DNA of 64,000 nucleotides from Dehalococcoidia bacterium (GCA_965220375.1 OZ244824.1:1864406-1928405); one strand, 5' to 3'; counted from the stretch's first letter, positions 26,014-64,000 are shown. Program-made: numbers and translations. Notes: a model not told the origin generated them from the sequence alone.

Positions 26014-26037
26014 ACGCAGGATAACCGATGATTCCTG

Positions 26038-26071
26038 GGAAGGGGACGCCATTAGCGTCCCCTTCCTTTTT
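26038..26071 (+). terminator. intrinsic terminator after amidohydrolase 1
   Basis: 12-bp stem GGAAGGGGACGC / GCGTCCCCTTCC, 5-nt loop, followed by TTTTT. Confidence 0.75.
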
Positions 26072-26073
26072 CC

Positions 26074-26102
26074 TTGACAGCCCAAGCCCACGCCCATACA
26101 AT
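26074..26102 (+). promoter_or_regulatory. sigma70-type promoter of amidohydrolase paralogs 2-4
   Basis: TTGACA (26074-26079), 17-nt spacer, TACAAT (26097-26102), directly after the terminator. Confidence 0.5.
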
Positions 26103-26184
26103 TGGCCGCAAGGCAGGCAAGTCTGGCGAGTTCCCTATGGCACACAGCCTGTAACATCTACAGTGAATGGCAGGGAGGCGACAC

Positions 26185-27366: not shown

Positions 27367-27400
27367 AACAAGGTGCGCAACACCCTAAGGTAGGTGCATC

Positions 27401-28585
27401 ATGAGAGATGGCTACAAGGTCATCGATATGGATACCCATGTGAACCCCGACTTTACGGTTCTGGAGAAGTTCGTCGAGCCCAGCTTCCGTCCCCGACTGG
27501 AAGATCTTGCTCCCTACATTCGCCAGAGGCAGGCGGTTGAGGGAGGCAGCAGAAAAAGCCTGAGCATCGGACCTGTGCGCTTCAATCGCTTCCCTGGGAC
27601 GGCGCCAGATGCCAGCGATGCCGCGGCGGTAGTGGGAGGCCGTGACGCCTTGGAAGGCAGGACCACCAGCCAGCACAGGGCCAAAGTGCAGCCCGATACC
27701 CAGGATGAGAACGCCGAAGGACGCATCCACGATATGGATATCGAGGGCCGGGATATCGACATGATATTCCCAACCCAGTGGGTGTCCACCATGACAGCCC
27801 TGGATGACGTCACCCTTACCCATGGGCTCTATCGGGCATACCACAACTACATGCAGTCCTACACCTCCATAGCCCCCGATCGTCTCAAGAGCGAGATACA
27901 GGTCCCCGGGTCCGATCCTGAGTGGGCTGTATCGGAGATCAAGAGATGGGGGAACGAGAAGTGGGTGGCAGGGGTTTGGATACATCTGAAAGAAGGGCTG
28001 CCCATAGATGATCCATCCATAGACCCCGTCTTTGCCACCATGAACGACATGGACCTGCCCCTGGTGCATCATAGCTTCTTCTTCGAGCCACCCTACTTCC
28101 CAGGCTACAAGGATATCTGGGGTAACACAGTGGTGGCCCGCAGCGCAGCCCATCCTTGGGGCGCTGCCAGGCTGGGGGCTTACATCATCCTGTCGGGGCT
28201 GTTCGACAGGTACCCCAATCTGCGGTTCGCAACATCGGAGACGGGGCACGGCTGGCTGCCCAACTGGGTGATCCGCCTGGGCTTCAATAAGAGCTACGTA
28301 AGCGGTGTAACACCGGACCTGAAGTACACACCCCTGGAGTATTGCCAGATGGGGCGCTGGGTGTGCGCCGCCGAGCCTTTCGAAGGTCCCGCCATGACCA
28401 AGGCATGTATCGAGGTCCTGGGTGAGGACTGCCTGATGCACCAGTCGGACTATCCCCACGGCGAATGCTGGTGGCCCGAGACGGCGAAAGAGGTCATGGA
28501 GTGGAACTTCTGGCCCGAGTTCAGCTCGGCGGCCCTGACAAAGCACATGTCGGGCAATGCGGAGAAGTTTCTGAGACTGGCCTGA
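27401..28585 (+). CDS. amidohydrolase-2 family protein, paralog 3 of 4
   Basis: MRDGYKVIDMDTHV, HHSFFFEPPYFPGYKDIWGN, GHGWLPNW, MHQSDYPHG. It lies 34 nt after paralog 2. Confidence 0.8.
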   Translation: MRDGYKVIDMDTHVNPDFTVLEKFVEPSFRPRLEDLAPYIRQRQAVEGGSRKSLSIGPVRFNRFPGTAPDASDAAAVVGGRDALEGRTTSQHRAKVQPDTQDENAEGRIHDMDIEGRDIDMIFPTQWVSTMTALDDVTLTHGLYRAYHNYMQSYTSIAPDRLKSEIQVPGSDPEWAVSEIKRWGNEKWVAGVWIHLKEGLPIDDPSIDPVFATMNDMDLPLVHHSFFFEPPYFPGYKDIWGNTVVARSAAHPWGAARLGAYIILSGLFDRYPNLRFATSETGHGWLPNWVIRLGFNKSYVSGVTPDLKYTPLEYCQMGRWVCAAEPFEGPAMTKACIEVLGEDCLMHQSDYPHGECWWPETAKEVMEWNFWPEFSSAALTKHMSGNAEKFLRLA

Positions 28586-28654
28586 GATATAGGGGCTCCG
28601 AGCGCGGAGCAGGGAATACCTGGTCAAACCGGAAAATAGCACAGGAGGCGTAAG

Positions 28655-29836
28655 TTGAGAGACGGTTACAAGATCATAGATATGGATACCCATGTGAACC
28701 CAGCAATGGAGGTCCTGGAGAAATACGTGGAGCCCAGCTTCCGTTCCCGGATAGAGGAGCTTAAGCCCTTCTATCGTGTGCGGACGAACCCCGATGGCAG
28801 CACCCGCAGCGGCATCACCGTCGGCGCTATCCCCTTTGACCGCTTCCCCGGCACTGCCCCCAAGTCGGACGACGATAAGGCAGTTGCCGGTGGCAGGAGC
28901 GCCCTGGAAGGCCGTACCGTCAGCCAGCACCGGGCAAAGGCCCATGCAGGCGTCGATGAAGAGAACTCCGCCGATCGCCTGATCGACATGGACCTGGAGG
29001 GCCGGGACATCGACTTCATCTTCCCCGGGACCTGGGCAACCACCATAACCGGCTTGGACGATGTCACCCTGAGCGAGGGCCTCTACCGGGGCTATCACAA
29101 CTACATGGACACCTTCACTGCCGTGAACACCGACCGCTTGAAGACCGCCATACAGGTGCCGGGCATAGACCCGGAGTGGGCAGTGTCGGAGATCAAGCAC
29201 TGGGGCAACTCGCCATGGGCGGCGGCAGTTTGGGTCCACCTGAAGGAAGGTCTTCCCATAGATGACCCTTCCTTGGAGCCGGTATTCGCCGCTATCAATG
29301 ACCTTAACCTGCCCCTGGTGCACCACAGCTTCTTCTTCGAGCCTCCCTACTTCCCTGGCTACAAGGATATCTGGGGCAACACTGTGGTCGCCCGCACGGC
29401 AGCCCATCCTTGGGGAGCAGCCAGGCTGTTCGCCTATGTGATCCTGTCGGGGATGCTGGACCGCTATCCTAACCTGCGCTTCGGTACCGCTGAGGTGGGG
29501 CACGGCTGGCTTCCCAACTGGCTCATCCGCTTGGGCTTCAACAAGAGCTACGTATCCGGCGTGACCCCGGACCTGAAGTACACGCCCATCGAGTATGCCC
29601 AGATGGGGCGGGTGGTATGCGCCGCCGAGCCCTTCGAGGGTCCTGCCATGACCAGGGCTTGTGTCGAAATACTGGGTGAGGACTGCCTCATGCACCAGTC
29701 CGACTATCCCCATGGCCAGGCGTGGTTCCCGGAGACGGCCAAGGAGGTCATGGAGTGGGATATATGGGGCGATTTCGGCAAGGATGCCCTCAAGAAGCAT
29801 ATGTATGACAATGCCTCCTCATTCCTGAGGCTGTAG
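28655..29836 (+). CDS. amidohydrolase-2 family protein, paralog 4 of 4
   Basis: TTG start (LRDGYKIIDMDTHV) with a GGAGG RBS. The C-terminal half is nearly identical to paralog 2. Confidence 0.8.
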   Translation: MRDGYKIIDMDTHVNPAMEVLEKYVEPSFRSRIEELKPFYRVRTNPDGSTRSGITVGAIPFDRFPGTAPKSDDDKAVAGGRSALEGRTVSQHRAKAHAGVDEENSADRLIDMDLEGRDIDFIFPGTWATTITGLDDVTLSEGLYRGYHNYMDTFTAVNTDRLKTAIQVPGIDPEWAVSEIKHWGNSPWAAAVWVHLKEGLPIDDPSLEPVFAAINDLNLPLVHHSFFFEPPYFPGYKDIWGNTVVARTAAHPWGAARLFAYVILSGMLDRYPNLRFGTAEVGHGWLPNWLIRLGFNKSYVSGVTPDLKYTPIEYAQMGRVVCAAEPFEGPAMTRACVEILGEDCLMHQSDYPHGQAWFPETAKEVMEWDIWGDFGKDALKKHMYDNASSFLRL

Positions 29837-51667: not shown

Positions 51668-54271
51668 CTAGCCACACTTGTTCCAGCCGCAGGAGGCGCA
51701 CAGCAGGCAGCCCTCCTGGTATGCCACGGGCGCATTGCAGTCCGGGCACCGGGTGCGGGGCATGCTCCCCGACAGGTCCCAGGCTTGGCGCTTGTCCGTC
51801 GCTGCAAACAGCTTCAGCTGGGAGCCGTCTATAGGCTCGTGGTTCACCGCCGCCGAGACCCTGCGCTCCAGGGCCAGCGCCACAGCATCGGGGGCCGAGC
51901 GCACCAGGGTGCCGTTGTCCCATGCCGGGCAGCAGGTGATCCCCTTGAGCTGGCTGACCACCTCCCGGATGTCCACTCCCGAGCGCAGGGCCAGCGACAC
52001 CAGCCGGGATATAGCCTCAAGCTGGGCCGAATCGCACCCGCCCGCCTTGCCCAGGGTGGAGAACACCTCGAAGGGCATCTGGCTCTCATCGAAGTTGATG
52101 GTGATGTACATCGTCCCGTGCCCCGTCTTCACCCGCTCGGTGATGCCCTGCATCTCCGCCGGACGCTCCCTCGGGGAGAGGGTGCTGCCTGTGCCGGCGG
52201 CGTCCTCAACCTCCGGCTCGCTGTGGGTCTCGCCCGTGCTCAGCACCTGGTTCTCCTTGCTCCCGTCCCGGTATATGGTTATCCCCTTGCAGCCCATCTT
52301 GTACGCAAGGGTGTAGGCGTCCGCTATATCTTCCTTGGTGGCGTCATGGGGAAAGTTGATGGTCTTGGACACCGCGTTGTCCGTGTGTTTCTGGAATGCA
52401 GCCTGCATCCTCACGTGCCACTCGGGGCTGATGTCGTGGGAGGTTGCGAACAGCTCTTTGACCCAGCCGGGCACCGCCCCATTCATCTCGTGCAGGCTGC
52501 CCTTGTGGGCCAGCTCCTCCATCAGCTCCATGGAGTAGAAGCCCTCGTGCTTGGCCACAGCCTCGAAGATGGAGTTGCCCTCCACCAGCAGCGTGTTGTC
52601 CATCACGTTGCGCACATAGCTCAGGGCAAACAGGGGCTCTATCCCGCTGGAGCAGCCCGCGATGATGCTGATGGTCCCCGTGGGCGCTATGGTCGTCGGC
52701 GCCGAGTTGCGCATCCTGGGGCCGTCCGGCCGGTCATATATGCTCCCCGGCCATGCGGGGAACGTCCCCCGTCTCTCCGCCAGCTCCGCCGAAGCTTGGT
52801 GGGCCTTGTGTCGGATGAAGGTCATTATCTCCTCGGCCACACCCAGGGCGGCCTCCGAGGCGTATGGAACACCCAGCTGGATCAGCAGGTCGGCAAAGCC
52901 CATGACCCCCAGCCCTATGCGCCGGGTCTTCTTGCTCATATCTTCGATGGCAGGTATGGGATAGTCGTTCATGTCGATGACGTTTTCCAGGGTATGAACG
53001 GCCACGGAGATCACCCCGTCCATCTTCTCCCAGTCTATGCCGATGCCGTCGCCTGTGCTGCGCACCATCTGGGACAGGTTCACCGATCCCAGGTTGCACG
53101 ACTCATAGGGGAGCAGGGGCTGCTCTCCGCAGGGGTTGGTGCTCTCGATGACACCCAGCTTCGGCGTCGGATTGTCCCTGTTGATGCGGTCCAGGAAGAC
53201 TATGCCCGGGTCCCCCGTCTTCCACGCCATCTCCACCAGCAGCTCGAACACCTCCCGGGCGTTCAGCCGCCCCTCGACCCTGCCGTTGCGGGGATTCACC
53301 AGGTCGTACTCCTCGTCCTTGTCCACCTTGCCCATGAACTCTTCGGTGACGGCGACGGAGATGTTGAAGTTGGAGATGCTGTGCCCGTCCTCCTTGGAGG
53401 TTATGAACCTGAGGATATCCGGGTGGTTCACCCGCAGGATGCCCATGTTGGCGCCCCGCCGGGTGGAACCCTGCTTCACAGCCTCGGTGGCCCCGTCGAA
53501 GGCCCGCATGAAGCTCACCGGGCCGCTGGCGACACCGCCCGTGGAACCCACGATGTCCCCCTCGGGCCGCAGGCGGCTGAAGGCGAAGCCCGTGCCCCCG
53601 CCGCTCTTCTGCACCAGGGTCGCCTGCTTCACCGTCTCGAAGATCGCCTCCATGGAGTCCTCGACGGGCAGGACGAAGCAGGCGGAGAGCATCTGCAGCT
53701 CCCTGCCGGCGTTCATCAGCGTCGGTGAGTTGGGAAGGTAGTCAAGGGATGCCATCGCCCGGTAGAACCCTTCCTCGGTGGCCTGCACCTCTTCTTCCGT
53801 GGCCCCGTACAGCCGGTCCGCCTGGGCCAGGTTGTGGGCCACCCGCCTGAACATCTCGTCGGGCTTCTCGATGACCTTCCCCTCCCGGTCCTTGGCCAGG
53901 TAGCGACGCTCCAGCACCACCCGGGAGTTCTCGCTCATGCTCCGGGCGCTTGCGACCATCTCTTCCAGGTCGCCCGAAGCCTCCAGGGCCCTCTTCACCC
54001 GGCTCCGCACTTCCGCTGTGCTTGGACTATAACCATGTTCCGCGCCTGGACTATGACCATGCTCCGCGCCAGGACTGTTCCCATGCTCCGCGCCAGGACT
54101 GTTCCCATGCTCCGTGCCAGGACTGTTCCCATGCTCCGTGCCTGGGCTATGACTATGTTCCGTGCCAGGAATGTTCCCATGTTCCGTGCCTGGACTGTTC
54201 CCATGTTCCGCGCCAGGACTGTTCCCATGTTCTGTGCCAGGACTATAACCATGTTCGATATTGGCCGTCAT
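51668..54271 (-). CDS. nrdJ: adenosylcobalamin-dependent (class II) ribonucleotide reductase with an N-terminal octapeptide-repeat extension
   Basis: RNR motifs SENSRVVLERRYL, NSPTLMNAG, SACFV, GGGTGFAFSRLRP, NPCGEQPL..YESCNLGS, TIAPTGT. C-terminal zinc ribbon CPDCNAPV...CLLCASCGWNKC. ATG 54271 has a GGAG RBS 5 nt upstream. Residues 6-85 are ten (T/A)EHGNSPG repeats. Confidence 0.9.
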   Translation of the reverse strand: MTANIEHGYSPGTEHGNSPGAEHGNSPGTEHGNIPGTEHSHSPGTEHGNSPGTEHGNSPGAEHGNSPGAEHGHSPGAEHGYSPSTAEVRSRVKRALEASGDLEEMVASARSMSENSRVVLERRYLAKDREGKVIEKPDEMFRRVAHNLAQADRLYGATEEEVQATEEGFYRAMASLDYLPNSPTLMNAGRELQMLSACFVLPVEDSMEAIFETVKQATLVQKSGGGTGFAFSRLRPEGDIVGSTGGVASGPVSFMRAFDGATEAVKQGSTRRGANMGILRVNHPDILRFITSKEDGHSISNFNISVAVTEEFMGKVDKDEEYDLVNPRNGRVEGRLNAREVFELLVEMAWKTGDPGIVFLDRINRDNPTPKLGVIESTNPCGEQPLLPYESCNLGSVNLSQMVRSTGDGIGIDWEKMDGVISVAVHTLENVIDMNDYPIPAIEDMSKKTRRIGLGVMGFADLLIQLGVPYASEAALGVAEEIMTFIRHKAHQASAELAERRGTFPAWPGSIYDRPDGPRMRNSAPTTIAPTGTISIIAGCSSGIEPLFALSYVRNVMDNTLLVEGNSIFEAVAKHEGFYSMELMEELAHKGSLHEMNGAVPGWVKELFATSHDISPEWHVRMQAAFQKHTDNAVSKTINFPHDATKEDIADAYTLAYKMGCKGITIYRDGSKENQVLSTGETHSEPEVEDAAGTGSTLSPRERPAEMQGITERVKTGHGTMYITINFDESQMPFEVFSTLGKAGGCDSAQLEAISRLVSLALRSGVDIREVVSQLKGITCCPAWDNGTLVRSAPDAVALALERRVSAAVNHEPIDGSQLKLFAATDKRQAWDLSGSMPRTRCPDCNAPVAYQEGCLLCASCGWNKCG
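54017..54256 (-). repeat. 10 x 24-bp in-frame tandem repeat at the nrdJ 5' end
   Basis: Units such as CGCGCCAGGACTGTTCCCATGCTC (plus strand). All are exactly 24 nt with no indels. They encode EHGYSPGT, EHGNSPGA, EHGNSPGT, EHGNIPGT, EHSHSPGT, EHGNSPGT, EHGNSPGA, EHGNSPGA, EHGHSPGA, EHGYSPST. Confidence 0.95.
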
Positions 54272-54289
54272 TGATACTCCAGTCTCCCC

Positions 54290-55385
54290 TCCCTGTTTCC
54301 GTCCTCGCGTACCCCGTCACTCCCGCGAAAGCGGGAGTCTCCCTCCCTGCGTCCGTTCGCCGCCTACCCCTAAGGATCCCCTTCCGTTCGCCGCCTACCC
54401 CTAAGGATCCCCTTCCGTTCGCCGCCTACCCCTAAGGATCCCCTTCCGTCCGATCATCCTGAGGGAACTCGAAGGACCTGAGCTTGTCGAAGGACCCTTC
54501 GAGGGCCTCAGGGCAGGGCCGGACACAGCCTCCGTCACTCCCGCGGAAGCGGGAGTCTACGCCCCCGCCGTTCCCGCCCTCGCCCTCTACCTTACTAACA
54601 ATGCCTTTATTAAAATTGCGCTCGGCCCTCACGCCAACCCCTCCCTGCGTCCCCCTGCCCGATCCCCCATTCCCATATTCCCGTTCCCCCAGCCCCCCCC
54701 TCCGTTCGCCGCCTACCCCTAAGGATCCCCTTCCGTTCGTCCTGAGGGAACTCGAAGGACCTGAGCCCGTCGAAGGACCCTTCGAGGGCCTCAGGGCAGG
54801 GCCGGACACAGCCTCCCTGTCCCAACCTCCGTCACTCCCGCGGAAGCGGGAGTCTACGCCCCAGCCGTTCCCGCCCTCGCCCTCTACCTTACTAACAATG
54901 CCTTTATTAAAATTGCGCTCGGCTCTCACGCCAACCTCCCCTGCGTCCCCCTGCCCGTTCGCCGCGTACCCCTGTCCGTTCCCCGCCTACCCCCTGTCCA
55001 TTCGCCGCCTACCCCTAAGGATCCCCTTCCGTTCGATCATCCTGAGGCACTCGAAGGACCTGAGCTTGTCCAAGGACCCTTCGCCCAGACTCAGGACAGG
55101 GCCGGAAACAGCCGTTCCCGCCCTCGCCCTCGCCCTCTACCTTACTAACAATGTCTTTATTAGAATTGCGCTCGGCCCTCACGCCAACCCCTCCCGGCGT
55201 GCCCCCTGCCCATTCGCCGCCTACCCCTAACGATCCCCCTCCGTCCGATCATCCTGAGGGAACCCGAAGGACCTGAGCTTGTCGAAGGAGAACGGAGGGG
55301 GATCTGGCTCAATGCGGGCTGACAGAGAGGCTGCGTCGAAGGGCCCTTCGGCAGGCTCAGGACAGGGCCGGACACAGCGGGTCTG
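54290..55385. repeat. repeat island A1 between nrdJ and nrdR: three tandem units of about 250-300 bp built from CCGTTCG-type hairpin modules
   Basis: The marker CTTACTAACAATG(C/T)CTTTATTA(A/G)AATTGCGCTCGG occurs at 54591, 54888 and 55141. Each unit also carries CCGCCTACCCCTAAGGATCCCCTTCCGT, TCCTGAGGGAACTCGAAGGACCTGAGCTTGTCGAAGGACCCTTCG..CAGGGCCGGACACAGCC. Two units carry ACTCCCGC-GGAA-GCGGGAGT hairpins, and a third copy with a GAAA loop lies at 54329. Confidence 0.9.
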
Positions 55386-55389
55386 TCCT

Positions 55390-55848
55390 TTAAGCATCCG
55401 CCGTCTCCCCCCGCAGGTCCCGCACAACCTCCTCGAAGCTCTCGATATCCTGGAAGTCGCGGTAAACGCTGGCGAACCGCACGTAGGCCACCCGGTCCAG
55501 CGCCCGGAGACGCTCCATCACCAAGCGCCCCAGCGCGTTGGAGTGGATCTCCACGTTGCCGAAATCGTGCAGCCGGGCTTCGATGTCCGCCACCATATCC
55601 TCTATATTATCATAGGAGATGGGACGCTTGGCGCAGGCGCGGACGATGCCGTCCCGCAGCTTCTCCCTGCTGAACTCCTCCCGCCGGCTGTCGTTCTTGA
55701 CCACCAGCAGCGCGGGAAGATGCACCTTCTCATAGGTGGTGAAACGGAGCCCGCAGCGGGCGCACTCCCGCCGCCGGCGGATGCTGTTCTCCGTCGTGCG
55801 GGAATCGATCACCTTGGAGTCAGCATATGCGCAATATGGACACTGCAT
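55390..55848 (-). CDS. nrdR: transcriptional repressor NrdR
   Basis: MQCPYCAYADSKVIDSR...RRRRECARCGLRFTTYE zinc ribbon plus an ATP-cone (REEFSREKL..GI..AC.KRP). Length 152 aa. Confidence 0.95.
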   Translation of the reverse strand: MQCPYCAYADSKVIDSRTTENSIRRRRECARCGLRFTTYEKVHLPALLVVKNDSRREEFSREKLRDGIVRACAKRPISYDNIEDMVADIEARLHDFGNVEIHSNALGRLVMERLRALDRVAYVRFASVYRDFQDIESFEEVVRDLRGETADA

Positions 55849-55854
55849 CGATCA

Positions 55855-56165
55855 CCACCCCCTCCCCGTCTCCGTTCGCCCAGCCCCCCTCCGTCCGATC
55901 ATCCTGAGGCCCTCGAAGGACCTGAGGCCCTCGAAGGAGAACGGACAGGGCCGGACACAGCCACCCTCATAATTACCACCCGGTCCGTCCGATCATCCTG
56001 AGGCCCTCGAAGGACCCTTCGACAAGCTCAGGACAGGGCCGGACCCAGCCACCCTCATAATTACCACCCGGTCCGTCCGATCATCCTGAGGCCCTCGAAG
56101 GACCTGAGGCCCTCGAAGGACCTGAGGCCCTCGAAGGGGAACGGACAGGGCCGGGCACAGCCGGA
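55855..56165. repeat. repeat island A2 between the nrdR start and its NrdR-box promoter
   Basis: Three copies of CCGTCCGATCATCCTGAGGCCCTCGAAGGACC... modules. CCACCCTCATAATTACCACCCGGTCCGTCCGATCATCCTGAGGCCCTCGAAGGA occurs at about 55961 and 56050. Confidence 0.85.
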
Positions 56166-56199
56166 AGGCCAGCCACCTTTGGATTCAGGGCTATGTTCA

Positions 56200-56246
56200 G
56201 CACTATATGTTGTGTTGGCACAAAACAAAACCACAATATTTCGTAT
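56200..56246. promoter_or_regulatory. tandem NrdR boxes
   Basis: Box 1 is gCACTATATGTTGTGt (56200-56215) and box 2 is cCACAATATTTCGTAt (56231-56246). Both resemble the acaCwAtATaTwGtgt NrdR consensus. Their centres are about 31 bp apart (three helical turns), and they lie just downstream of the minus-strand promoter. Confidence 0.55.
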
Positions 56247-56257
56247 AGCGGGCTATG

Positions 56258-56287
56258 ATTATTGGCAAATGTTCAGCCAATTGTCAA
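56258..56287 (-). promoter_or_regulatory. putative sigma70 promoter driving nrdR (and possibly nrdJ)
   Basis: On the minus strand: TTGACA (56287-56282), 18-nt spacer, AATAAT (56263-56258). It sits in a locally AT-richer unique segment between repeat islands. Confidence 0.45.
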
Positions 56288-56329
56288 GCGCCAAGAGTCC
56301 GAACTTTCACCCCATTTCCTCCCCATTCC

Positions 56330-57150
56330 CGCCCGCATTGAGCCAGCTCCCCTTCCGTTCGCCCACCCTCCCCTATGTTCGTTCGCCCTGAGGCTCTCGA
56401 AGGGCGTGTCCTGAGCCGCGTCCCCGGCCCTGTCCTGAGCCGGGGCGAAGGATCCTTCGACAAGCTCAGGACGAACGGGGCGTGTACGCAGCGAGCGAGG
56501 GGGTGTACGCAGCGAGCGGGGGGCCTCCCCCCTGGGCCCTCCCCCCGGCCCGGCGCTCAGCCCGTCCCCATCCCCGTTCCCCCACCCTCCCCCACCCCCG
56601 TTCGCCCTGAGGCTCTCGAAGGGCGTGTCCTGAGCCGCGTCCCCGGCCCTGTCCTGAGCCGGGGTGAAGGATCCTTCGACAAGCTCAGGACGAACGGAAG
56701 GGGATCCTTAGGGGTAGGCGGGGAGCGGACAGCCGGACCAGGCGAGGGAGCGCTTGAGTTCCCCTCATCCTAACCTTCTCCCACCAGCGGCCCCACCCCC
56801 GTTCGCCCTGAGGCTCTCGAAGGGCGTGTCCTGAGCCGCGTCCCCGGCCCTGTCCTGAGCCTGTCGAAGGGCCTGTCCTGAGCCTGCCCTGAGCCTGTCG
56901 AAGGGCCTAACCTGGCTCTGTGTCCGGCCCTGTCCTGAGCCTGCCCTGAGCCTGCCCTGAGCTTGTCGAAGGGCTTGTCGAAGGCCCTACTCCTGGGCTT
57001 CTGTCCCAGGGGGGCCTTTGCCTAACCTGGCTCTGTGTCTGGCCCTGTCCTGAGCCGCGTCCCCGTTCTCCTTCGACAAGCTCAGGACGAACGGAAGGGA
57101 ATCCTTAGGGGTCGGAGGCGAACGGGTGTGTTTGGACCTGTCCTGAGGCA
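56330..57150. repeat. repeat island A3 (divergent intergenic region between nrdR and the cadherin-like gene)
   Basis: Units of about 215 bp recur at about 56381, 56598 and 56798. Each is CCGTTCGCCCTGAGGCTCTCGAAGGGCGTGTCCTGAGCCGCGTCCCCGGCCCTGTCCTGAGCCGGGG(C/T)GAAGGATCCTTCGACAAGCTCAGGACGAACGG, an inverted pair forming a hairpin of about 100 nt. There are also GTCCTGAGCCTGCCCTGAGC mini-tandems and a 21-bp duplication GTGTACGCAGCGAGCG(A/G)GGGG. Confidence 0.9.
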
Positions 57151-57234
57151 CTCGAAGGAGCGCCCGTTGGTATAATGAACGGGCATGTGTTCGCCCCGGC
57201 GGGAGAATTGGCCCAACTTTGCGCCCTACAGGTC

Positions 57235-57263
57235 TTGAATAGCATATTGACTGATGGTATATA
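57235..57263 (+). promoter_or_regulatory. putative promoter of the cadherin-like/collagen-like operon
   Basis: TTGAAT (57235-57240), 17-nt spacer ending in TGG (extended -10), TATATA (57258-57263), in an AT-richer unique segment. This implies a leader of about 470 nt. Confidence 0.4.
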
Positions 57264-57738
57264 CATGGTGTAGAAATACAGGCGGAGCGCATCTGCCTGT
57301 AGTTAGGACAACACAGGTTTGCCAACAGATAGAAAATTGCTGAGACAGGGAATAGTAACCGCACCCAAGGACTACCTTGATATCGTTGCGCCTGCCGGTC
57401 TCCCGGTCCCCTTCGATTTCACTCAGGGCGAATGGGGGGCTAGGCTGGGCAGGAGCGGCGGGTTACGCTGATCATGGAACTTGAAGTGAGAAACGCCTTT
57501 GGCGGCATGGTCCCGCACAGGCCGGCCGGTCCGCCGGGAAGGCCGTGTGCGAGGCTGCGCACGTTTCTTTCGAGAAGCCTCTTTCGGGAATGCCGTCAAC
57601 GCTTTGGAAGGTGCTTACCTGGGGGAGGGGAGATGGTATCGAACAGAAGCCCTTAGTCCATAGCTTACAAGCTTTCTTAGAGATACACGCGGACGCGTGG
57701 TGCACAAGGAAATCCAGTACATAGGAGAGGTGTGCAAT

Positions 57739-60700
57739 ATGGATACAATTTTCAAGGGCTTGGCAAACAAGTGGATGGTACTGGCCCTGCTCCTGGTTGC
57801 GCTGGGAGCGGTGCTGACTATCACCCTGCTGCCCGCCGGGGCGCAGAACGGCGGCGATGCCATCGAGTTCCCGGAAAACAGTGACGAAACCATAGCCTAC
57901 TTCACTGCGGTGGACCCCGAGGGCGGGACGGCCAGTTGGGCTAATGATCCTTTGTCCGGGACCGACGAGGGCGCTTTCAACTTCGACAAGGATACGGGTG
58001 CGCTGAGCTTCAAGAGCGAGCCCGACTTCGAGTCCCCAACGGACGAAGATGGGACGTCCCCGTCCACAGCCGAGGCCGGGGACAACATCTACGAGGTGGT
58101 CTTGACGGCGACCGACGGCACCGCGACGATGACCGAGGTTGTCATGGTTAAGGTCACCAACGAGAACGAGAAGGCGACGACCGTGCTAGAGCTGTCGCTG
58201 GTGCAGCCTCGGGAGGGAGACTTCATAACCGTCGTGTACGCCGACAAAGTGGGGAACCCCTACGTGGATGCTGCCGGCGTAGAAAACACATCCATCGTGG
58301 ACCCCGACGGAGACAAAGGGGAAGTTCCTCCCATAAATGCAGAGGATGCTAATGCAGCCAAGATGAACATTACCGAGATGGATGATACCGAGGATCCTCC
58401 TGTCGAGTTGGTGACCTGGCAGTGGTACCGTGGGTCGAGCCGGGCTGGACCTTGGACGGAGATTCCTGGGCCCAACGCCAAGAAGAAGAGCTACGATGTT
58501 GTGGACGACGACAAGGACAAATACCTGATGGTGGTCGCGACATACGAAGACGCACACGGGCCGAACAAGATGCTGGAAGCGGTTTCCAAGTACCCCACCA
58601 TTAAGCTGGTGGCTGACTATAAGACCCCCGTGTTCCCCGACTTTGATCCAAGCACTAGCCCCACCCCCATAGATGGGCCGACCGAGGAGGTCGCCGACGG
58701 GACAACAGGTCAGGCGAATGTAGGAAGCCTGGTGCTTGCCAGCGGTGACACGATCGAGCGAGGGGAGCGGCCCACCTACTACCTGGTGGCGACCGACGAT
58801 TCCCTACCACATGCCGACATGTTCCAGATTGATCGGGCTACCGGCCAGGTTAAGGTGGGCATAGGCAAGACGCTGAATCCGGCGAGCGATTCGGGAAGAC
58901 CAGCAAGCGATCAACTAGCCAACCCAGGTGCGCCAGTTGGTGGATACATGGTCACCATCAAGATCAACGACGGCAAGGACGACTACGATGCAGTTGGCCG
59001 CGTCGAACGCACAGTCGGAACAGTCCCCGACGCCGAATATGATAGCTCGACGTCCATGACGATTACGGTGACCGAGGAGGATGAGGCCCCGATATTCACC
59101 ATGGGTGAGACGGCCTATGACTACTCCGAGAATAAGCGGGAAGCCGATGACAGCGCCGATGACCTTAATGTGGCCAACTTTGTGGCCTACGACCCCGAAG
59201 GAGATGCTCCGGCTATCACCCTGTCCGGCCCGGATGTGCGCAAGTTCGCTACCGAGGGAGCTACCAACGTTCTGACCGACGGTACGACTCCCGGTGCTCT
59301 GAGCTTCGTTGCTAGCACCCCGCGAGTTGCTGGCGACCAGCCGGACTTTGAGAATCCGGAGGATGCGAACGAGGACGGGGTGTACGAAGTAACGGTGACC
59401 GCAACCTCGGGTTCGAAGACCAACCCCCTAAGCGTGAGGGTGACGGTGACAAACGCTCAGGACCCAGGAGAGGTGTCCTTGAGCGCGAGACAGCCGAGGA
59501 TCGGGGTGCCGATAAGCGCAATGGTTGTCTCGGACGAAGACGGCGACGTGAGCGGGCTGCGGTGGCAGTGGTCGGCAACCAGAGAACTTCCAGATGATTG
59601 TTTGGCCGCCACTCTTGAGGCCCTTAATGACGACGAGGAAAATCCCAGGTGGCAAACTGCGAAGGGTGATGGGACGAGGACGGCCACCTACACTCCGCAG
59701 ACCGCCGACGATGGCAAGTGCCTGAGGGCGACGGCGATGTACACCGATCCGGCAGGGTCTACGAACACCGCCGAAGTGTCGGCTCTACGGGCCGAGAAGG
59801 CGCGGAACCTGTCGCCGATGTTCATGGACGAAAACGATGATGCGGATGGCATCCAGATCAAGACGAGGTACGTGATCGAGCCTTCGGGTGCAGGCGAAGA
59901 TGTTGAGATTACTGCAAACATAGATGAGGGCAGGCAGGTCGTCGCAGGTCGTGATGGTGCCGTCAGCACTGCAGACGCAGACCCCAACGCCGACCGAATA
60001 GTCGCCACAGACCTCCTCGACGAGGAGACGGCGGACGACGACGCCATAGAGTACAGCCTGAGCGGGGCCGACGCGAGGTACTTCAATATTTACTCCGTTG
60101 CAGAGCATTCCGTAGACGACCCCTTTGATTCTACGGACACCACTCAGACAACCAACGCCGGCCAGATATGGGTGAAGCCTGGGGTGAACCTGGACTTTGA
60201 GACCCGGCGCACATACAGGGTCATGGTCACGGCCAAGGACCTTGCTGACGACGATGAGTCGAGGAACGACCCGTCGGTATGGGTGGAGATCAAGGTTGTG
60301 AACGCCGAGGAGCCGCCGGAGATCATGCGGGGCAGGCTGGCAGTGGAAGGCGTGCCTCTGGTTGAGCACGACAGCATGAGCACGGACGACGTGGGCGAGT
60401 ACAGGGCTGTAGGCGTGGACGCGCCTGGTGCCGAGTGGAGCCTGTCGGGTGCCGACATGGATGACTTCAGCATCAGCGCGGGCGGTGTCCTGACCTTCAA
60501 CAACCCGCCCAACATCAACAACTCGATGGACGACAACAATGACAACGTTTACATGGTTACGGTCGTGGCCACCAACGGCGACAGCATAGATTCCCTGGAT
60601 GTCACAGTCACCGTCGGAAGGGCGGCTGAAGCCGCCCCAGACCCGACCTCGCTGGACGATTTCGACCCCGATCAGAGGTTCGACCTCAACGGTGACGGGA

Positions 60701-60765
60701 CAGTGGATGATAGTGAGGTCAGGGCGGTCCTCAGGGAGTACTTCGCGGACAATCCAGGCAACTAG
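57739..60765 (+). CDS. secreted cadherin-repeat protein with a C-terminal EF-hand/dockerin-like Ca-binding module
   Basis: ORF 57697..60765, with ATG 57739 preferred (AGGAGAGG RBS). Signal peptide MDTIFKGLANKWMVLALLLVALGAVLTITLLPAGAQ. Repeated cadherin-like modules end in PDFE(S/N)P.D..(D/N)..Y(E/M)V.(L/V)TAT.G (FESPTDEDG..IYEVVLTATDG, FENPEDANEDGVYEVTVTATSG, NNSMDDNNDNVYMVTVVATNG, LDFETRRTYRVMVTAKD). The C-terminus has DLNGDGTVDDSE. Confidence 0.8.
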   Translation: MDTIFKGLANKWMVLALLLVALGAVLTITLLPAGAQNGGDAIEFPENSDETIAYFTAVDPEGGTASWANDPLSGTDEGAFNFDKDTGALSFKSEPDFESPTDEDGTSPSTAEAGDNIYEVVLTATDGTATMTEVVMVKVTNENEKATTVLELSLVQPREGDFITVVYADKVGNPYVDAAGVENTSIVDPDGDKGEVPPINAEDANAAKMNITEMDDTEDPPVELVTWQWYRGSSRAGPWTEIPGPNAKKKSYDVVDDDKDKYLMVVATYEDAHGPNKMLEAVSKYPTIKLVADYKTPVFPDFDPSTSPTPIDGPTEEVADGTTGQANVGSLVLASGDTIERGERPTYYLVATDDSLPHADMFQIDRATGQVKVGIGKTLNPASDSGRPASDQLANPGAPVGGYMVTIKINDGKDDYDAVGRVERTVGTVPDAEYDSSTSMTITVTEEDEAPIFTMGETAYDYSENKREADDSADDLNVANFVAYDPEGDAPAITLSGPDVRKFATEGATNVLTDGTTPGALSFVASTPRVAGDQPDFENPEDANEDGVYEVTVTATSGSKTNPLSVRVTVTNAQDPGEVSLSARQPRIGVPISAMVVSDEDGDVSGLRWQWSATRELPDDCLAATLEALNDDEENPRWQTAKGDGTRTATYTPQTADDGKCLRATAMYTDPAGSTNTAEVSALRAEKARNLSPMFMDENDDADGIQIKTRYVIEPSGAGEDVEITANIDEGRQVVAGRDGAVSTADADPNADRIVATDLLDEETADDDAIEYSLSGADARYFNIYSVAEHSVDDPFDSTDTTQTTNAGQIWVKPGVNLDFETRRTYRVMVTAKDLADDDESRNDPSVWVEIKVVNAEEPPEIMRGRLAVEGVPLVEHDSMSTDDVGEYRAVGVDAPGAEWSLSGADMDDFSISAGGVLTFNNPPNINNSMDDNNDNVYMVTVVATNGDSIDSLDVTVTVGRAAEAAPDPTSLDDFDPDQRFDLNGDGTVDDSEVRAVLREYFADNPGN

Positions 60766-60812
60766 CCCCAAGAGCGGATGTGTGACGGATACACAGATGA
60801 GGAGGAAGCAGA

Positions 60813-61817
60813 TTGGTTAGGAGCATAACAAAACTACCACCGCTCTTGTTGGCAGCCCTCGTGGCGCTGGGGCTGGTCATGGCGGTCGGGCTCTGGCTTC
60901 CGGGCCAAGCCGGCGCGCAAGCAAACATGAACGAAAGGTCCTTCAACGCAACGGAGGTTATGCCTGGGGCAGAGGTGATGGTCACCATCGAGCACACCAT
61001 AGGCAGTGGTATGGGGGGGCAGATAGTAGAGAACCTGCCCCCGGGATTCGAGTACGTGGCGGAATCGGCTACCAGCGCCGACGAACCGGTAATCAGCGGG
61101 TCGGTGACCACGGGGCGGACGCTCACATTCACCCTGTTCAATGAGCCGGACCCCGTCAGCTATACGGTGACGGCCTCCGACGAGGAGATCGCCCATACCT
61201 TTGAGGGCAGCGTAAGTGTCTTCGGCGGGGAGGGCGGCGATATCGGCGGCGCTGCCGAAGTGACCGTCGCGGCCGATGCGCCGGAAGTCACTCCCACCGA
61301 AGAACCCGGCCCTATGAATACCCCTACCCCCGCTGGGCCTCGTGGACCTCGCGGTCGGACGGGGGACACGGGTGACACCGGGCCCCAAGGTGAGCAGGGT
61401 ATCCAGGGCGTTCCCGGACCCCCAGGCAACCCCGGAGCCTCCGGCATGGCCGGAGCCCCCGGTGAACCCGGAGCCCAGGGCGAACAGGGTATCCAGGGCG
61501 AACCGGGAGCCAAGGGTGACCCGGGCGACAACGGCGATCCGGGCGAGCCAGGAGCCATGGGTGACCCAGGTGAAGCGGGAGCCAAGGGCGACCCCGGCGA
61601 CCCGGGGGCCAAGGGCGACCAGGGATCCCAGGGTGACCCTGGAGATGACGGCGACCAAGGCGCCAAGGGCGATACCGGCGCCAAGGGTGATGCCGGCGAT
61701 GTCGGCCCCGAAGGAGCCTCTGGAGGCGCCGGACTGGGCATCATCGCGCTGATCATCGCCATCGTGGCGGTGGTCGTAGCAGGTGGAGGCGTGTTCCTCG
61801 CCAACTCCCGTCGCTAG
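60813..61817 (+). CDS. membrane-anchored collagen-triple-helix-repeat surface protein
   Basis: TTG start preceded by a GAGGAGGA RBS. Signal peptide ..LVMAVGLWLPGQAGAQA. N-terminal globular domain of about 130 aa (..IVENLPPGFEYV..). Pro/Thr linker. About 44 uninterrupted G-X-Y triplets. C-terminal TM helix LGIIALIIAIVAVVVAGGGVFLA followed by NSRR. Confidence 0.85.
   Translation: MVRSITKLPPLLLAALVALGLVMAVGLWLPGQAGAQANMNERSFNATEVMPGAEVMVTIEHTIGSGMGGQIVENLPPGFEYVAESATSADEPVISGSVTTGRTLTFTLFNEPDPVSYTVTASDEEIAHTFEGSVSVFGGEGGDIGGAAEVTVAADAPEVTPTEEPGPMNTPTPAGPRGPRGRTGDTGDTGPQGEQGIQGVPGPPGNPGASGMAGAPGEPGAQGEQGIQGEPGAKGDPGDNGDPGEPGAMGDPGEAGAKGDPGDPGAKGDQGSQGDPGDDGDQGAKGDTGAKGDAGDVGPEGASGGAGLGIIALIIAIVAVVVAGGGVFLANSRR
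61335..61730 (+). repeat. collagen-like G-X-Y coding repeat (about 44 triplets)
   Basis: GPRGPRGRTGDTGDTGPQGEQGIQGVPGPPGNPGASG....GAKGDAGDVGPEGASGGAG has Gly at every third residue without interruption. Confidence 0.95.
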
Positions 61818-61837
61818 CGCAATAGCATAGACTAAGT

Positions 61838-63345
61838 AGTCAGACACGGGCTGGTGGACGTAATCCGCCAGCCCGTGTCCGTTCGCGGGAACAGACCCCC
61901 GTTCGTCCTGAGCTTGTCGAAGGACCCTTCGCCCCGGCTCACGACAGGGCCGGACACAGACCTAAGGACCCCCCCCCCCCGTTCGCCCTGAGGCCCTCGA
62001 AGGGTAGCGGGAACAAAATCCCGTTCGTCCTGAGCTTGTCGAAGGAGAGCGGAGGGAACCCGGAAGGACAGATGGGAACAGATACTAAGTAATCAGACAC
62101 GGGCTGGTGGACACAACCACCAGCCCGTCGCCTTCCCCCCCGCATCCCCCGTCTGCGGGAACAGAGCCCCGTTCGCCCACCCCCCATTTCCCCGTTCGCC
62201 CTGAGGCCCTCGAAGGGGAAGGATGGGGGGGAATTAATGAAAGTCCGTTCGTCCTGAGCTTGTCGAAGGGTAGCGGACAGGCCGGACACAGACCTAAGGA
62301 TCCCCTTCCGTTCGCCCCGTCCCCATTTCCCCGTTCGTCCTGAGCTTGTCGAAGGACCCTTCGCCCTAGCTCACGACAGGGCCGGACACAGACCTAAGGA
62401 CCCCCCCCCCGTTCGCCCCGCCCCATTTCCCCGTTCCCTGCCTACCCCTCCGTTCGCCCACCCCACATAGTCCGTTCGCCCCGTCCCCATTTCCCCGTTC
62501 GTCCTGAGCTTGTCGAAGGACCCTTCGCCCCGGCTCAGGGCAGGGCCGGACACAGACCTGCCCGTCAGCTTCTCGGTGTCCTCCGTTGCTGCTTCGAGTG
62601 CCTCAGCACGAACGGAGGCCTACGCCCCAGGGTTAGGCAAAGGTCTGCGGTGTCCGCCGTTCCCCACCCCCTATTTCCCCGTTCGTCCTGAGGCCCTCGA
62701 AGGGGAAGGATGGGGGGAATTAATGAAAGTCCGTTCGTCCTGAGCTTGTCGAAGGAGAACGGACAGGCCGGACACAGACCTAAGGACCCCCTCCGTTCGC
62801 CCTGAGGCCCTCGAAGGGGACAGGGCCGGACACAGGAGCAAGGTAATCAGACACGGGCTGGTGGACACAATCCGCCAGCCCGTGTCCGTTCGTGGGAACA
62901 GAGCCCCGTTCGCCCACCCCCCATTTCCCCGTTCGTCCTGAGCTTGTCGAAGGATCCTTCGCCCCGGCTCAGACCTGCCCTTCGGCTTCGCGTGGGGCCC
63001 CCGTTCTGCTTCGAGGGCCTCAGGGCGAACGGAGGACGTGCGCCCCAGGGTTAGGCAAAGGTCTGCGGTGTCCGCCGTTCCCCTTTTGCCCCGGCTGTGT
63101 GTCCGCCCACCCCCCCACTGCTGTGACCGTTCGCCCTCCCCTCTCCGTTCGTCCTGAGCTTGTCGAAGGACCCTTCGACCCGGCTCACGACAGGGCTGGA
63201 CACAGACCTAAGGATCCCCTTCCGTCCACCCCCTCCCCCCATTTCCGTTCGCCCACCTACCCCTCCGTTCGCCCTCCCCACATAGTCCGCTCGCCCTCCC
63301 CCATTTCCCCGTTCGTCCTGAGCTTGTCGAAGGAGAACGGAGAGT
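61838..63345. repeat. repeat island B between the collagen-like gene and the GIY-YIG gene
   Basis: More than 25 CCGTTCG heptamers. There are many copies of CCGTTCGTCCTGAGCTTGTCGAAGGACCCTTCGCCCCGGCTCA(C/G)GACAGGGCCGGACACAGACCTAAGGA, CCCCATTTCCCCGTTCG, GTTGCTGCTTCGAG(T/G)GCCTCAG(C/G)(A/G)CGAACGGAGG and GCCCCAGGGTTAGGCAAAGGTCTGCGGTGTCCGCCGTTCCCC in shuffled order. Poly-C tracts lie at 61969-61980 and 62401-62410. Confidence 0.9.
61843..61879 (+). terminator. 12-bp-stem hairpin after the collagen-like gene (terminator-like, no U-tract); first of three copies
   Basis: GACACGGGCTGG, 13 nt, CCAGCCCGTGTC. The same module with its 5' flank (T)AAGTAATCA recurs at about 62096-62130 and 62850-62886. Confidence 0.45.
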
Positions 63346-63379
63346 GGCCAGAGCTGGAGATGATATACTCTGCTCCAAC

Positions 63380-63676
63380 ATGCCCTTTTGGATGTACATA
63401 CTTCGTTGCGCTAACGGCTCATATTACACTGGCCATACCGATGCCTTGGAGCGTCGGATCGCCGAGCATGAGTCGGGGGCATACGCAGGGTACGTATCAA
63501 GGAGACGCCCTGTAACCTTGGCATTTGCCCAGGAGTTCTCCACGCGAGAAGAGGCTTTGGCCGCAGAAAGTCGGGTGAAGGGATGGTCTCGCCCCAAGAA
63601 AGAGGCGCTCATGCGAGGGGACTGGCAGGCGTTGGTTGCCCTGTCGGGGCGACGCACTCCCGAGGGGCTAGCCTAG
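63380..63676 (+). CDS. GIY-YIG nuclease superfamily protein (small YhbQ/UPF0213-like)
   Basis: ORF 63344..63676, with ATG 63380 preferred. MPFWMYILRCANGSYYTGHTDALERRIAEHESG...RRPVTLAFAQEF.TREEALAAESRVKGWSRPKKEAL is the canonical single-domain GIY-YIG pattern. Confidence 0.85.
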   Translation: MPFWMYILRCANGSYYTGHTDALERRIAEHESGAYAGYVSRRRPVTLAFAQEFSTREEALAAESRVKGWSRPKKEALMRGDWQALVALSGRRTPEGLA

Positions 63677-63689
63677 ACGTCCATCGCAT

Positions 63690-64000
63690 ACGGGATTGCC
63701 CCATGTCCGTTCCTCATTCGACTCGGCGGTGTCCGTTCGCCCCCTCCCCATATTCCTGTTGGCCCCTCCACGCGGCTGTGTCCGTTCGTCCTGAGCTTGT
63801 CGAAGGACCCTTCGCCCCGGCTCAGAACAGGGCCGGATACACGCCAGGCCCTTCGAGGTAGCTCGGACATGCCCTTCGGCTTCCCGGTGTCCTCCGTTGC
63901 TGCTTCGAGTGCCTCAGCACGAACGGAGGACGATGGACCTGGGGGCCGTCTCAAGACATGCCCCTACTCCCCCTCCGTTCGTCTTTTCACGCGGCTATGT
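63690..64000. repeat. repeat island C (continues beyond the right edge)
   Basis: The same modules recur: GTCCGTTCGTCCTGAGCTTGTCGAAGGACCCTTCGCCCCGGCTCAGAACAGGGCCGGATACAC and GTTGCTGCTTCGAGTGCCTCAGCACGAACGGAGG. Confidence 0.85.

Follow-up and report, generated by a model that had tools for sequence, protein, structure and literature searches.

Hairpin repeats probably related to the Ssn system form dense, variable islands around nrdR in an uncultured Dehalococcoidia genome

Layout of the locus and extent of the repeats

We analyzed a 64,000-nt stretch of DNA (the window) from an uncultured member of the Dehalococcoidia (Chloroflexota; GCA_965220375.1 OZ244824.1:1864406-1928405), in which the non-coding DNA around the gene nrdR, at positions 54290-57150, is crowded with short hairpin repeats. 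This region is probably one of two islands, in this genome, of repeats related to those of the Ssn system. Ssn proteins are single-domain GIY-YIG nucleases of ~94 amino acids (CDD cd10448), whose genes are flanked by hairpin repeats called NTS in Neisseria and SRM in general (Chenal et al. 2025, PMC11893778).

Two minus-strand genes, nrdJ (class II ribonucleotide reductase, 51668-54271) and nrdR (55390-55848), are separated by a spacer of 1.1 kb, and a further 1.85 kb of non-coding DNA lies beyond nrdR. Next come two surface-protein genes on the plus strand, one cadherin-like (57697-60765, Pfam Cadherin) and one collagen-like (60813-61817, Pfam Collagen). Beyond the collagen-like gene the DNA is non-coding to the end of the window, except for one small open reading frame (ORF) at 63380-63676. 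The second island, B, runs from 61898 to the window end, and the two surface-protein genes (57697-61817) are flanked by the two repeat islands. NrdJ shares 90% identity with a protein assigned to a Dehalococcoidia MAG, which marks the host as an uncultured member of that group.

Self-BLAST within the window marked as repeated 92% of the nrdJ-nrdR spacer (54272-55389), 66% of 55849-57160, 3% of 56165-56335 and 0% of the nrdR ORF. The value for bases 1-51000 was 5%, all of it paralogous genes; there, ~480-bp stretches common to neighboring large ORFs at 25153-29805 are likewise paralogous and unrelated to the hairpin family. Over the whole interval 54290-57150, 66% of the sequence is repeated, which amounts to ~1.9 kb of 2.86 kb and to 79% of its non-coding DNA. 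A first-pass annotation had described a repeat mosaic here and put it at about 2.2 kb of 2.9 kb; the mosaic is evident and the size was slightly overestimated. The same annotation had described modules in both orientations and tandem units of about 90, 215 and 250-300 bp, and both descriptions agree with our results. Inverted pairs reach 47 nt with 89-96% complementarity, an 88-nt period is repeated 2.4 times at 55890-56104, 124-nt blocks recur at spacings of 219 and 201 nt, and 126-nt blocks recur at 297 and 253 nt. There are also perfect short tandems, of 31 nt (3.2 copies, 100% identity) and of 18 nt (2.0 and 2.9 copies). The hairpin family is found in at least three separate intergenic regions of the window, and its motifs are absent from the first 51 kb. 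The islands hold ~6-7 units per kb, compared with a median of 0.25 per kb around matches in the 120 other species listed, and they are indeed, as had been proposed, a modular, non-coding repeat family of unusually high local density.

A conserved 35-nt hairpin unit

The core unit of the family is 35 nt long and reads CCGTTCG-NCC-TGAG-loop-TCGAA-GGN-CGAACGG. Besides the head (CCGTTCG), it has a 4-bp stem that covaries, an internal region (GAG...TCGA) that is invariant and could form tandem G.A/A.G pairs, and a closing G-C pair that bears either a short loop or an extra hairpin. The stem reaches ~10 bp (CCGTTCG/CGAACGG) in about half of the units. The head is nearly invariant, CCG(T/C)T(C)(G/A), with the variants CCGTTCG and CCGCTCA, and it gives the hairpin an orientation.

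Covariation was examined in 41 units located beside nuclease genes of other organisms and selected by their left flank only. Pairs 9-27, 10-26, 11-25 and 12-24, next to the invariant GAG...TCGA, were found to covary. One stem pair occurs as U-A, C-G, G-C and U-G with zero mismatches in 40 sequences, and two other pairs occur as C-G and G-C. Double-change cells at the stem pairs number 43 against 12 expected, and the covariation score is 0.325 compared with 0.149 in shuffles, none of 500 of which reached 0.325; with the pairing partner slid, the score did not exceed 0.16. We conclude that the unit is selected as a hairpin and that its pairing is conserved. The covariation of the stem supports the folded hairpin, with its invariant internal region, as the form that is recognized.

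A covariance model trained on foreign units only, that is, on units from other organisms, returned 37 matches in the window, 13 of them at E < 1e-6 and 29 on the plus strand. All 37 fall at 54477-63927, in the two islands, and the remaining 54 kb contain one marginal match; no match lies inside a gene with family support. When folded as DNA, a single unit reaches -6.6 kcal/mol (z -2.5), an inverted doublet -15.7 kcal/mol (z -3.1) and an 86-nt unit -19.1 kcal/mol (z -3.4), and two other constructs have a z of only -1.4. The earlier proposal that the copies can fold as hairpins is borne out by these predictions, at z -1.4 to -3.4, and the calculated folding potential is real but moderate.

The Rfam search that had also been suggested produced no family match: at the gathering threshold the window contained tRNAs only, and at E values up to 5 only chance-level matches were added. 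A hammerhead-like ribozyme was considered and rejected, as the CUGAG...UCGAA core is only superficially alike and no hammerhead model matched.

A GIY-YIG nuclease gene bracketed by the unit

The small ORF at 63380-63676 (plus strand) encodes a 98-aa, Ssn-like, single-domain GIY-YIG nuclease. Residues 3-74 match Pfam PF01541 with E = 3.4e-18, and no further domain is present. Its PDB matches are the UPF0213 proteins 1zg2 and 1ywl (E ~2e-14), and 2081 homologous clusters were retrieved. The nuclease had no match in PADLOC, PHROGs or NCBIfam, and on these grounds a defence or phage origin was rejected.

A left terminal hairpin unit at 63308-63342 (plus strand; 42.4 bits, E = 5e-08 by the covariance model) ends 37 nt before the nuclease ATG, and a -10-like element, GATATACT, that is conserved when loci L224 and L225 are compared, lies between them. 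On the right, an eroded remnant of a terminal unit, GTCCGTTCCTCATTCGACTCGGCGG, is located at 63705-63729 (plus strand), as judged against the intact repeats of L224. The cassette of the window, with its eroded right end, is therefore 63308-63729; the covariance model finds further units past it at 63781-63815 (plus) and 63893-63927 (minus).

In order to place this arrangement in context, we surveyed the flanks of 34 metagenomic homologues with at least 46% identity and both flanks present. Of the 34, 18 (53%) have inward-facing units on both sides and 27 (79%) on one side or both, against a background of 0.23 units per kb in the same loci. Homologues below 46% identity have no flanking units of this type. 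Clean ~450-bp cassettes hold the two homologues nearest to the window protein (78% and 69% identity). That of L224 (contig_11, ERZ25069382), the locus of the 78%-identical homologue, has 37-bp perfect terminal repeats; the L225 cassette is intact, and a cassette in Altererythrobacter fulvus (L018) has 31-bp perfect inverted repeats. An intact cassette, with a unit-flanked GIY-YIG gene in the same arrangement, is also present on the Sphingomonas parapaucimobilis replicon NZ_CP155752.1 (L226:882-1821). In many phyla, then, two inverted units bracket the gene for a ~98-aa GIY-YIG nuclease in a cassette of ~450 bp. The first-pass annotation had stated that the elements lack a terminal-inverted-repeat-plus-transposase structure. 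This has to be revised, as the core unit is the terminal repeat of the nuclease cassette, a copy of which lies ~6 kb downstream.

Two of these loci have further features. L224 contains ~22 model matches in four intergenic islands within 12 kb, with a cadherin-domain gene nearby. In L226 the gene order is glyA, a hypothetical gene, nrdR, the GIY-YIG gene and an RNA methyltransferase gene, and the annotated GIY-YIG ORF enters the right-hand unit; the position of the nuclease gene directly downstream of nrdR may be a coincidence or a preferred site.

Distribution of the unit among bacteria

An exact 20-mer of the unit, GTCCTGAGCTTGTCGAAGGA, is present in at least 120 DNA stretches of species-representative genomes, among them genomes of Sphingomonadales, Dehalococcoidia, Anaerolineae, Acidobacteriota, Bacteroidota, Verrucomicrobiota, Planctomycetota, Nitrospirales and candidate phyla. 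At several of these loci a ~98-aa GIY-YIG ORF homologous to the one in the window lies between two inverted units. Among the modules of the islands, only the CCTGAG..TCGAAGG hairpin belongs to a widespread family. The 20-mer also occurs on 45 predicted viral stretches of IMG/VR (44 distinct contigs), and no nuclease gene lies beside it on those stretches; phage carriage of the nuclease cassette was rejected for want of an adjoining nuclease gene.

Doublets, composite blocks and lineage-specific modules

The modules listed by the first-pass annotation can be read in terms of the unit. The module CCGTTCG(Y)CCTGAG..TCGAAGG is the forward unit, the module CCCTTCG..GCTCAGGAC is the reverse unit, and the nested hairpin of about 55 nt is a forward-plus-reverse doublet. 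A MITE-like inverted doublet of 99 bp (MITE, miniature inverted-repeat transposable element) is located at 56380-56478 (plus strand) and consists of a forward unit, CGTTCGCCCTGAGGCTCTCGAAGGGCG, a 46-nt core and a reverse unit, TCCTTCGACAAGCTCAGGACGAACGG; 54 nt separate the unit cores as mapped. It has a second copy at 56599-56697, and the 99-bp composite recurs many times in two related strains, L001 and L002. A third doublet, at 56800-57094 (plus strand), has end motifs at 56800-56826 and 57069-57094, and its interior has grown to ~240 nt via tandem arrays of unit fragments of 11, 23 and 34 nt (56807-56979). All three doublets have the architecture of the nuclease cassette minus the ORF. The islands are built from solo units, ORF-less inverted doublets and tandem runs of units.

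Island A1 (54272-55389) fills the nrdJ-nrdR spacer and is made of composite blocks, with the 126-nt cores described above. In addition to hairpin units and lineage-specific modules, it contains an AT-rich segment and an NTS-like hairpin, three copies of each. The NTS-like hairpin CGTCACTCCCGCGAAAGCGGGAGTCTCC (the 'H' module) at 54315-54342, plus strand, matches the published SRM search string, and its further copies at 54533-54560 and 54830-54857 are each one position off that string. Folded as DNA, it reaches -9.8 kcal/mol (z -4.5). The AT-rich segment, CTTACTAACAATGCCTTTATTAAAATTGCGCTCGG, is 35 nt long and lies at 54591-54625, 54888-54922 and 55141-55175. In two of its three copies the NTS-like hairpin is found ~35 nt upstream. 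No sigma-70-like promoter was detected in this segment, which may be left over from the region upstream of nrdJ.

Island B (61898-63342, plus strand) lies downstream of the collagen-like gene and contains ~15 hairpin units, nearly all on the plus strand, together with lineage-specific modules. A stem-loop at the 3' end of the collagen-like gene (-20.3 kcal/mol as DNA, z -7.2) is present in three copies, at 61840-61880, 62093-62130 and 62847-62886. This threefold copying of a gene's own stem-loop is direct evidence that the island grew by segmental duplication. A solo hairpin unit at 57401-57436 (minus strand), upstream of the cadherin-like gene, was found as a regular-expression match with a weak covariance-model match (E = 0.34).

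The remaining vocabulary is restricted to this lineage and comprises CCTAAGGATCCCC, AGGGCCGGACACAG, TTCGCCGCCTACCCC, the AT-rich segment and the 3' stem-loop of the collagen-like gene. None of these sequences, and none of the other non-hairpin modules of the first-pass annotation, such as GGCCGGACACAG, occurs in 1.4 Mb of DNA from other loci. The view of all the modules as one family therefore stands for the hairpin unit, which is widespread, and fails for these. The non-hairpin modules are filler specific to this lineage and were co-amplified with the units. Tandem and segmental duplication enlarged the islands and took the local filler with it.

ORFs of 66-248 aa cross the islands on both strands at 54432-56773 (for example, 54484-55230 and 56375-56773, both on the plus strand). 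Gene callers predict similar ORFs in the islands of three related strains, with no Pfam match, and these long ORFs are most likely spurious.

The nrdR leader and variation among strains

A segment outside the repeat family, at 56165-56335, carries the nrdR promoter and two NrdR boxes. The promoter-like site, TTGACA-18-AATAAT, matches at 11 of 12 positions and lies at 56287-56258 on the minus strand, which is the strand of nrdR; the two box-like sites, at 56200-56215 and 56231-56246, are the only ones in the 64 kb. The unique promoter segment placed earlier at about 56180-56330 is accordingly well founded. It had further been proposed that the repeats respect gene and promoter boundaries. This is correct for the nrdR ORF and the box segment themselves, as the self-BLAST values above indicate, and has to be qualified for the leader, where an array of three composite units of ~88-94 nt (55849-56164) sits between the promoter with its boxes and the nrdR ATG. 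The array includes tandems of an 18-nt hairpin unit at 55903-55938 and 56085-56137.

For comparison we used three further assemblies from two samples (L001-L003), which together with the window represent four strains. NrdR is identical in the three other assemblies, and the length and order of the islands differ. The leader contains one composite unit in L002, three in the window, and four each in L003 and L001. The stretch that begins with the promoter segment and ends at the nrdR ATG measures 284 bp in L002, 496 bp in the window and 642 bp in L003. Runs of the 18-nt unit vary from 2 to 7 copies across the four strains, with up to seven in L001. The strain comparison suggested in the first-pass annotation has therefore revealed copy-number variation; the arrays run head to tail, and their copy number is unequal between close strains, as in minisatellites or variable-number tandem repeats (VNTR). 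Strains with 96-99% identity in the flanking genes have arrays of different length. The solo unit upstream of the cadherin-like gene is kept in all four strains. The cadherin-like and collagen-like genes themselves are 80-84% identical between the window and L001-L003, or cannot be aligned, whereas the flanking housekeeping genes are 96-98.6% identical.

The promoter/NrdR-box segment is conserved in all strains and in a sister species, L176, whose NrdJ is 90% identical. In L176 this segment ends ~50 nt from the nrdR ATG, the nrdR-nrdJ gap is 47 bp, and the covariance model finds no unit in 18 kb. Because the sister species has a compact leader and spacer devoid of units, the arrays are recent insertions into the gene leader and the operon spacer. 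The islands belong to this lineage alone; the sites of insertion were the nrdR 5' leader, the nrdR-nrdJ operon spacer and a position downstream of the surface-protein cassette. The genes ftsA and ftsZ lie upstream of nrdR in L176. A translated-repeat search for further islands in the species of the window found nothing.

The equivalent of island B in L001 contains an insertion sequence of the rve family (DDE type) with 56-nt imperfect inverted repeats (L001:573-1862), the ends of which are unrelated to the hairpin units. A 24-nt tandem repeat is found at 54033-54256 (9.3 copies, 85% matches), within the 5' end of the longest nrdJ ORF and in its frame, where it would encode (EHGNSPGT)n. This ORF is 867 aa long in the window, against 776 aa and 775 aa for the called genes of L001 and L002; the difference may partly reflect a different start call. 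In L001, the part that aligns is shorter as well.

Relation to known systems

The repeats described here appear to be a sequence variant of a system of the Ssn/SRM kind, in a new host lineage and in unusually dense and unstable arrays. The likenesses are numerous. Both systems have a single-domain GIY-YIG nuclease of ~94-98 aa, the gene for which is bracketed by inverted hairpin repeats; the repeats flank both sides in 53% of our homologues compared with 42% of the Ssn homologues, and at least one side in 79% compared with 71% (PMC11893778). In both, the repeats are oriented and have a conserved 5' head. Within the window they also appear extragenic and clustered beside surface-protein genes, which are unusually divergent between the strains examined here; clustering near surface-protein genes has been reported for NTS and SRM repeats (PMC11893778). 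Both are spread across phyla, including Sphingomonas, and an NTS-like hairpin, CGTCACTCCCGCGAAAGCGGGAGTC, is also found in island A1. The Neisseria NTS is itself part of dRS3, a repeat of the neisserial intergenic mosaic elements (PMC11893778). The two systems differ in the head, which is CCGTTCG here and CGTCA in NTS, in the GAG/TCGA interruption at a place where the NTS stem is perfect, and in the head-to-tail 18-nt runs and hypervariable higher-order arrays. They differ also in the host, here a member of the Dehalococcoidia (Chloroflexota), and in that the nuclease is known here from its sequence alone.

A number of observations weigh against this interpretation. The main unit and its variants fail the published SRM search string, HGTCWYN(0-2)YYVSBRHN(0-5)WNVSBRGN(0-2)RNCYNB (PMC11893778), and the string has no match near the nuclease ORF in 52 of 52 homologue loci. 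The only solved relatives of the 98-aa protein are UPF0213 proteins, and E. coli YhbQ is 37% identical to it. Protein clades agree only weakly with the loop types of the units (identity 0.61-0.65 within a type, 0.57 between types). Mobility is hypothetical: target-site duplications are lacking around the cassettes of L224, L225 and L018 and around the doublets, and no empty sites were found. Three substitutions, all of them non-synonymous, separate the nuclease alleles of the window and L002, and the L002 allele has a 1-nt deletion whose frameshift alters the last ~8 residues. Taken with the eroded right unit, these allelic changes suggest that the local nuclease gene may be decaying. Finally, growth of the arrays by duplication requires no nuclease.

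The UPF0213/YhbQ/YazA proteins (Slx1-like) are homologous minimal GIY-YIG domains (the superfamily is surveyed in PMC1564403). They differ from the present clade, which is usually flanked by units, in that no units flank yhbQ of E. coli. The modular vocabulary, the variable number of internal modules and the differences in copy number between strains are shared with pneumococcal BOX elements and with VNTR minisatellites. To our knowledge, neither of these has an associated nuclease cassette.

Alternative explanations

One alternative is a purely local minisatellite, whose hairpin-containing blocks slippage and unequal recombination would have amplified independently of any nuclease, the GIY-YIG gene being there by chance. 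It would account for the differences in copy number between strains at the 18-nt, ~88-nt and 200-300-nt levels, for the co-amplification of lineage-specific filler and of the 3' stem-loop of a gene, and for the degraded appearance of the local nuclease copy. However, the unit is not local: it is recovered by a model of foreign units, its exact 20-mer occurs in many phyla, it flanks the nuclease gene far above background, and it is found in no fewer than three distinct intergenic regions of the window and in four across 12 kb of L224. Duplication thus accounts for the density of the islands and not for their origin, and we regard a purely local origin as unlikely. The earlier view of a dispersed family rather than a local duplication is upheld by the units in other islands and phyla, and it needs the amendment that the density here arose mainly by tandem and segmental duplication. 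RNA-level elements (a leader or attenuator, an mRNA stabilizer or a ribozyme) selected for the control of nrdR and nrdJ are suggested by the position of the arrays, one of which lies in the 5' leader of nrdR and another in what was once the nrdR-nrdJ operon spacer, and by the 352-nt leader, which folds slightly better than its shuffles (z -2.3). Against them stand the lack of an Rfam match, the presence of units in both orientations and in contexts that do not look transcribed, their position as inverted DNA repeats around a nuclease gene, and the inactivity of the characterized SsnA on RNA (PMC11893778). A leader array that varies from one to four units between strains also speaks against a tuned regulatory structure, and a role of this kind seems to us very unlikely.

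The first-pass annotation had compared the repeats to REP/BIME or MITE families (REP, repetitive extragenic palindrome), which is apt in spirit but missed the partner gene, a GIY-YIG nuclease, and left aside the Ssn/SRM system, the closest one described; the repeats also have no GTAG/CGTC head. A classical MITE family would stem from a DDE-type insertion sequence in this genome that also mobilizes it in trans. The 99-bp doublets are non-coding, of a size typical of MITEs and bounded by terminal inverted repeats, and mirror a longer gene-carrying element, as bacterial MITEs do, and an rve-family element is indeed present in island B of L001. However, the inverted repeats of that element are unrelated, no target-site duplications were seen, and units were found to bracket just one gene, in several phyla, that of the GIY-YIG nuclease, for which no strand-transfer activity is known; we hold this origin to be highly improbable. 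REP/BIME or REPIN families served by a RAYT (Y1 HUH transposase) encoded elsewhere in the genome resemble our repeats in being short extragenic palindromes in inverted pairs and mosaic clusters, in having an enzyme gene between two inverted repeats, and in a recognized form that is probably an ssDNA (single-stranded DNA) hairpin. The authors of the Ssn study themselves likened the ssn arrangement to an insertion sequence and to REP/RAYT (PMC11893778). The flanked gene, however, encodes a GIY-YIG nuclease and not a Y1 HUH transposase in every cassette found, the head is CCGTTCG or CCGCTCA instead of a conserved GTAG or CGTC, and the survey of GTAG/CGTC repeat families in PMC3733652 does not include the unit sequences. 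In addition, a near-identical 20-mer is found here across phyla, whereas RAYT/REPIN systems are inherited mostly vertically, according to 10.1101/2022.05.22.493013. Service by a RAYT is scarcely credible on this evidence. An assembly artefact, in the form of collapsed or chimeric repeats, has a negligible probability in our view: repeat arrays are error-prone in assemblies and one related contig has only 3x coverage, but four independent assemblies (the three further ones coming from two samples) agree on the positions of the islands, on their vocabulary and on conserved unique anchors, and they include contigs with names indicating 37x (circular, 2.64 Mb) and 26x coverage. The artefact that the first-pass annotation had named as a possible refutation is contradicted by this agreement.

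Possible mechanism and significance

The characterized SsnA binds its hairpin only in ssDNA, cuts upstream of it on one strand, is inactive on duplex DNA and RNA, and reduces the integration of transforming DNA bearing the repeats (PMC11893778). By analogy with SsnA of Neisseria and Wolbachia (PMC11893778), one strand of the present unit would fold when DNA becomes single-stranded in replication, repair or the uptake of foreign DNA. The nuclease could then bind the folded unit and cut a few bases 5' of the hairpin. Such cuts would shorten or break recombination substrates, and in this manner might modulate the exchange and diversification of the bracketed genes. More speculatively, breaks made by the nuclease, together with slippage at the hairpins, could drive expansion and contraction of the arrays.

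A further proposal, which we consider doubtful, is that the CCGTTCG/TGAG...TCGAA hairpin, together with its GIY-YIG clade, constitutes a selfish element, distinct and still active, that moves between phyla and proliferates inside genomes via nuclease breaks at ssDNA hairpins, which are fixed by host replication or repair. If this were true, an Ssn-type nuclease would act like a transposase without the chemistry of strand transfer, and hypervariable arrays such as that of the nrdR leader would be its by-product.

Islands of this kind break short-read assemblies and create spurious ORFs, and new pairs of nuclease and hairpin are candidate ssDNA tools. Because the published motif misses this type of hairpin, which is nonetheless present in at least 120 stretches from many phyla, existing censuses of SRM repeats may be underestimates. 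The strains compared here provide a natural experiment, in which repeats grow and shrink in a gene leader and an operon spacer while the genes remain nearly identical. The bracketing of rapidly diverging surface-protein genes by repeats parallels the pattern reported for Neisseria, and the islands, read as we propose, would extend the Ssn/SRM system, worked out mainly in that genus, to the Chloroflexota.

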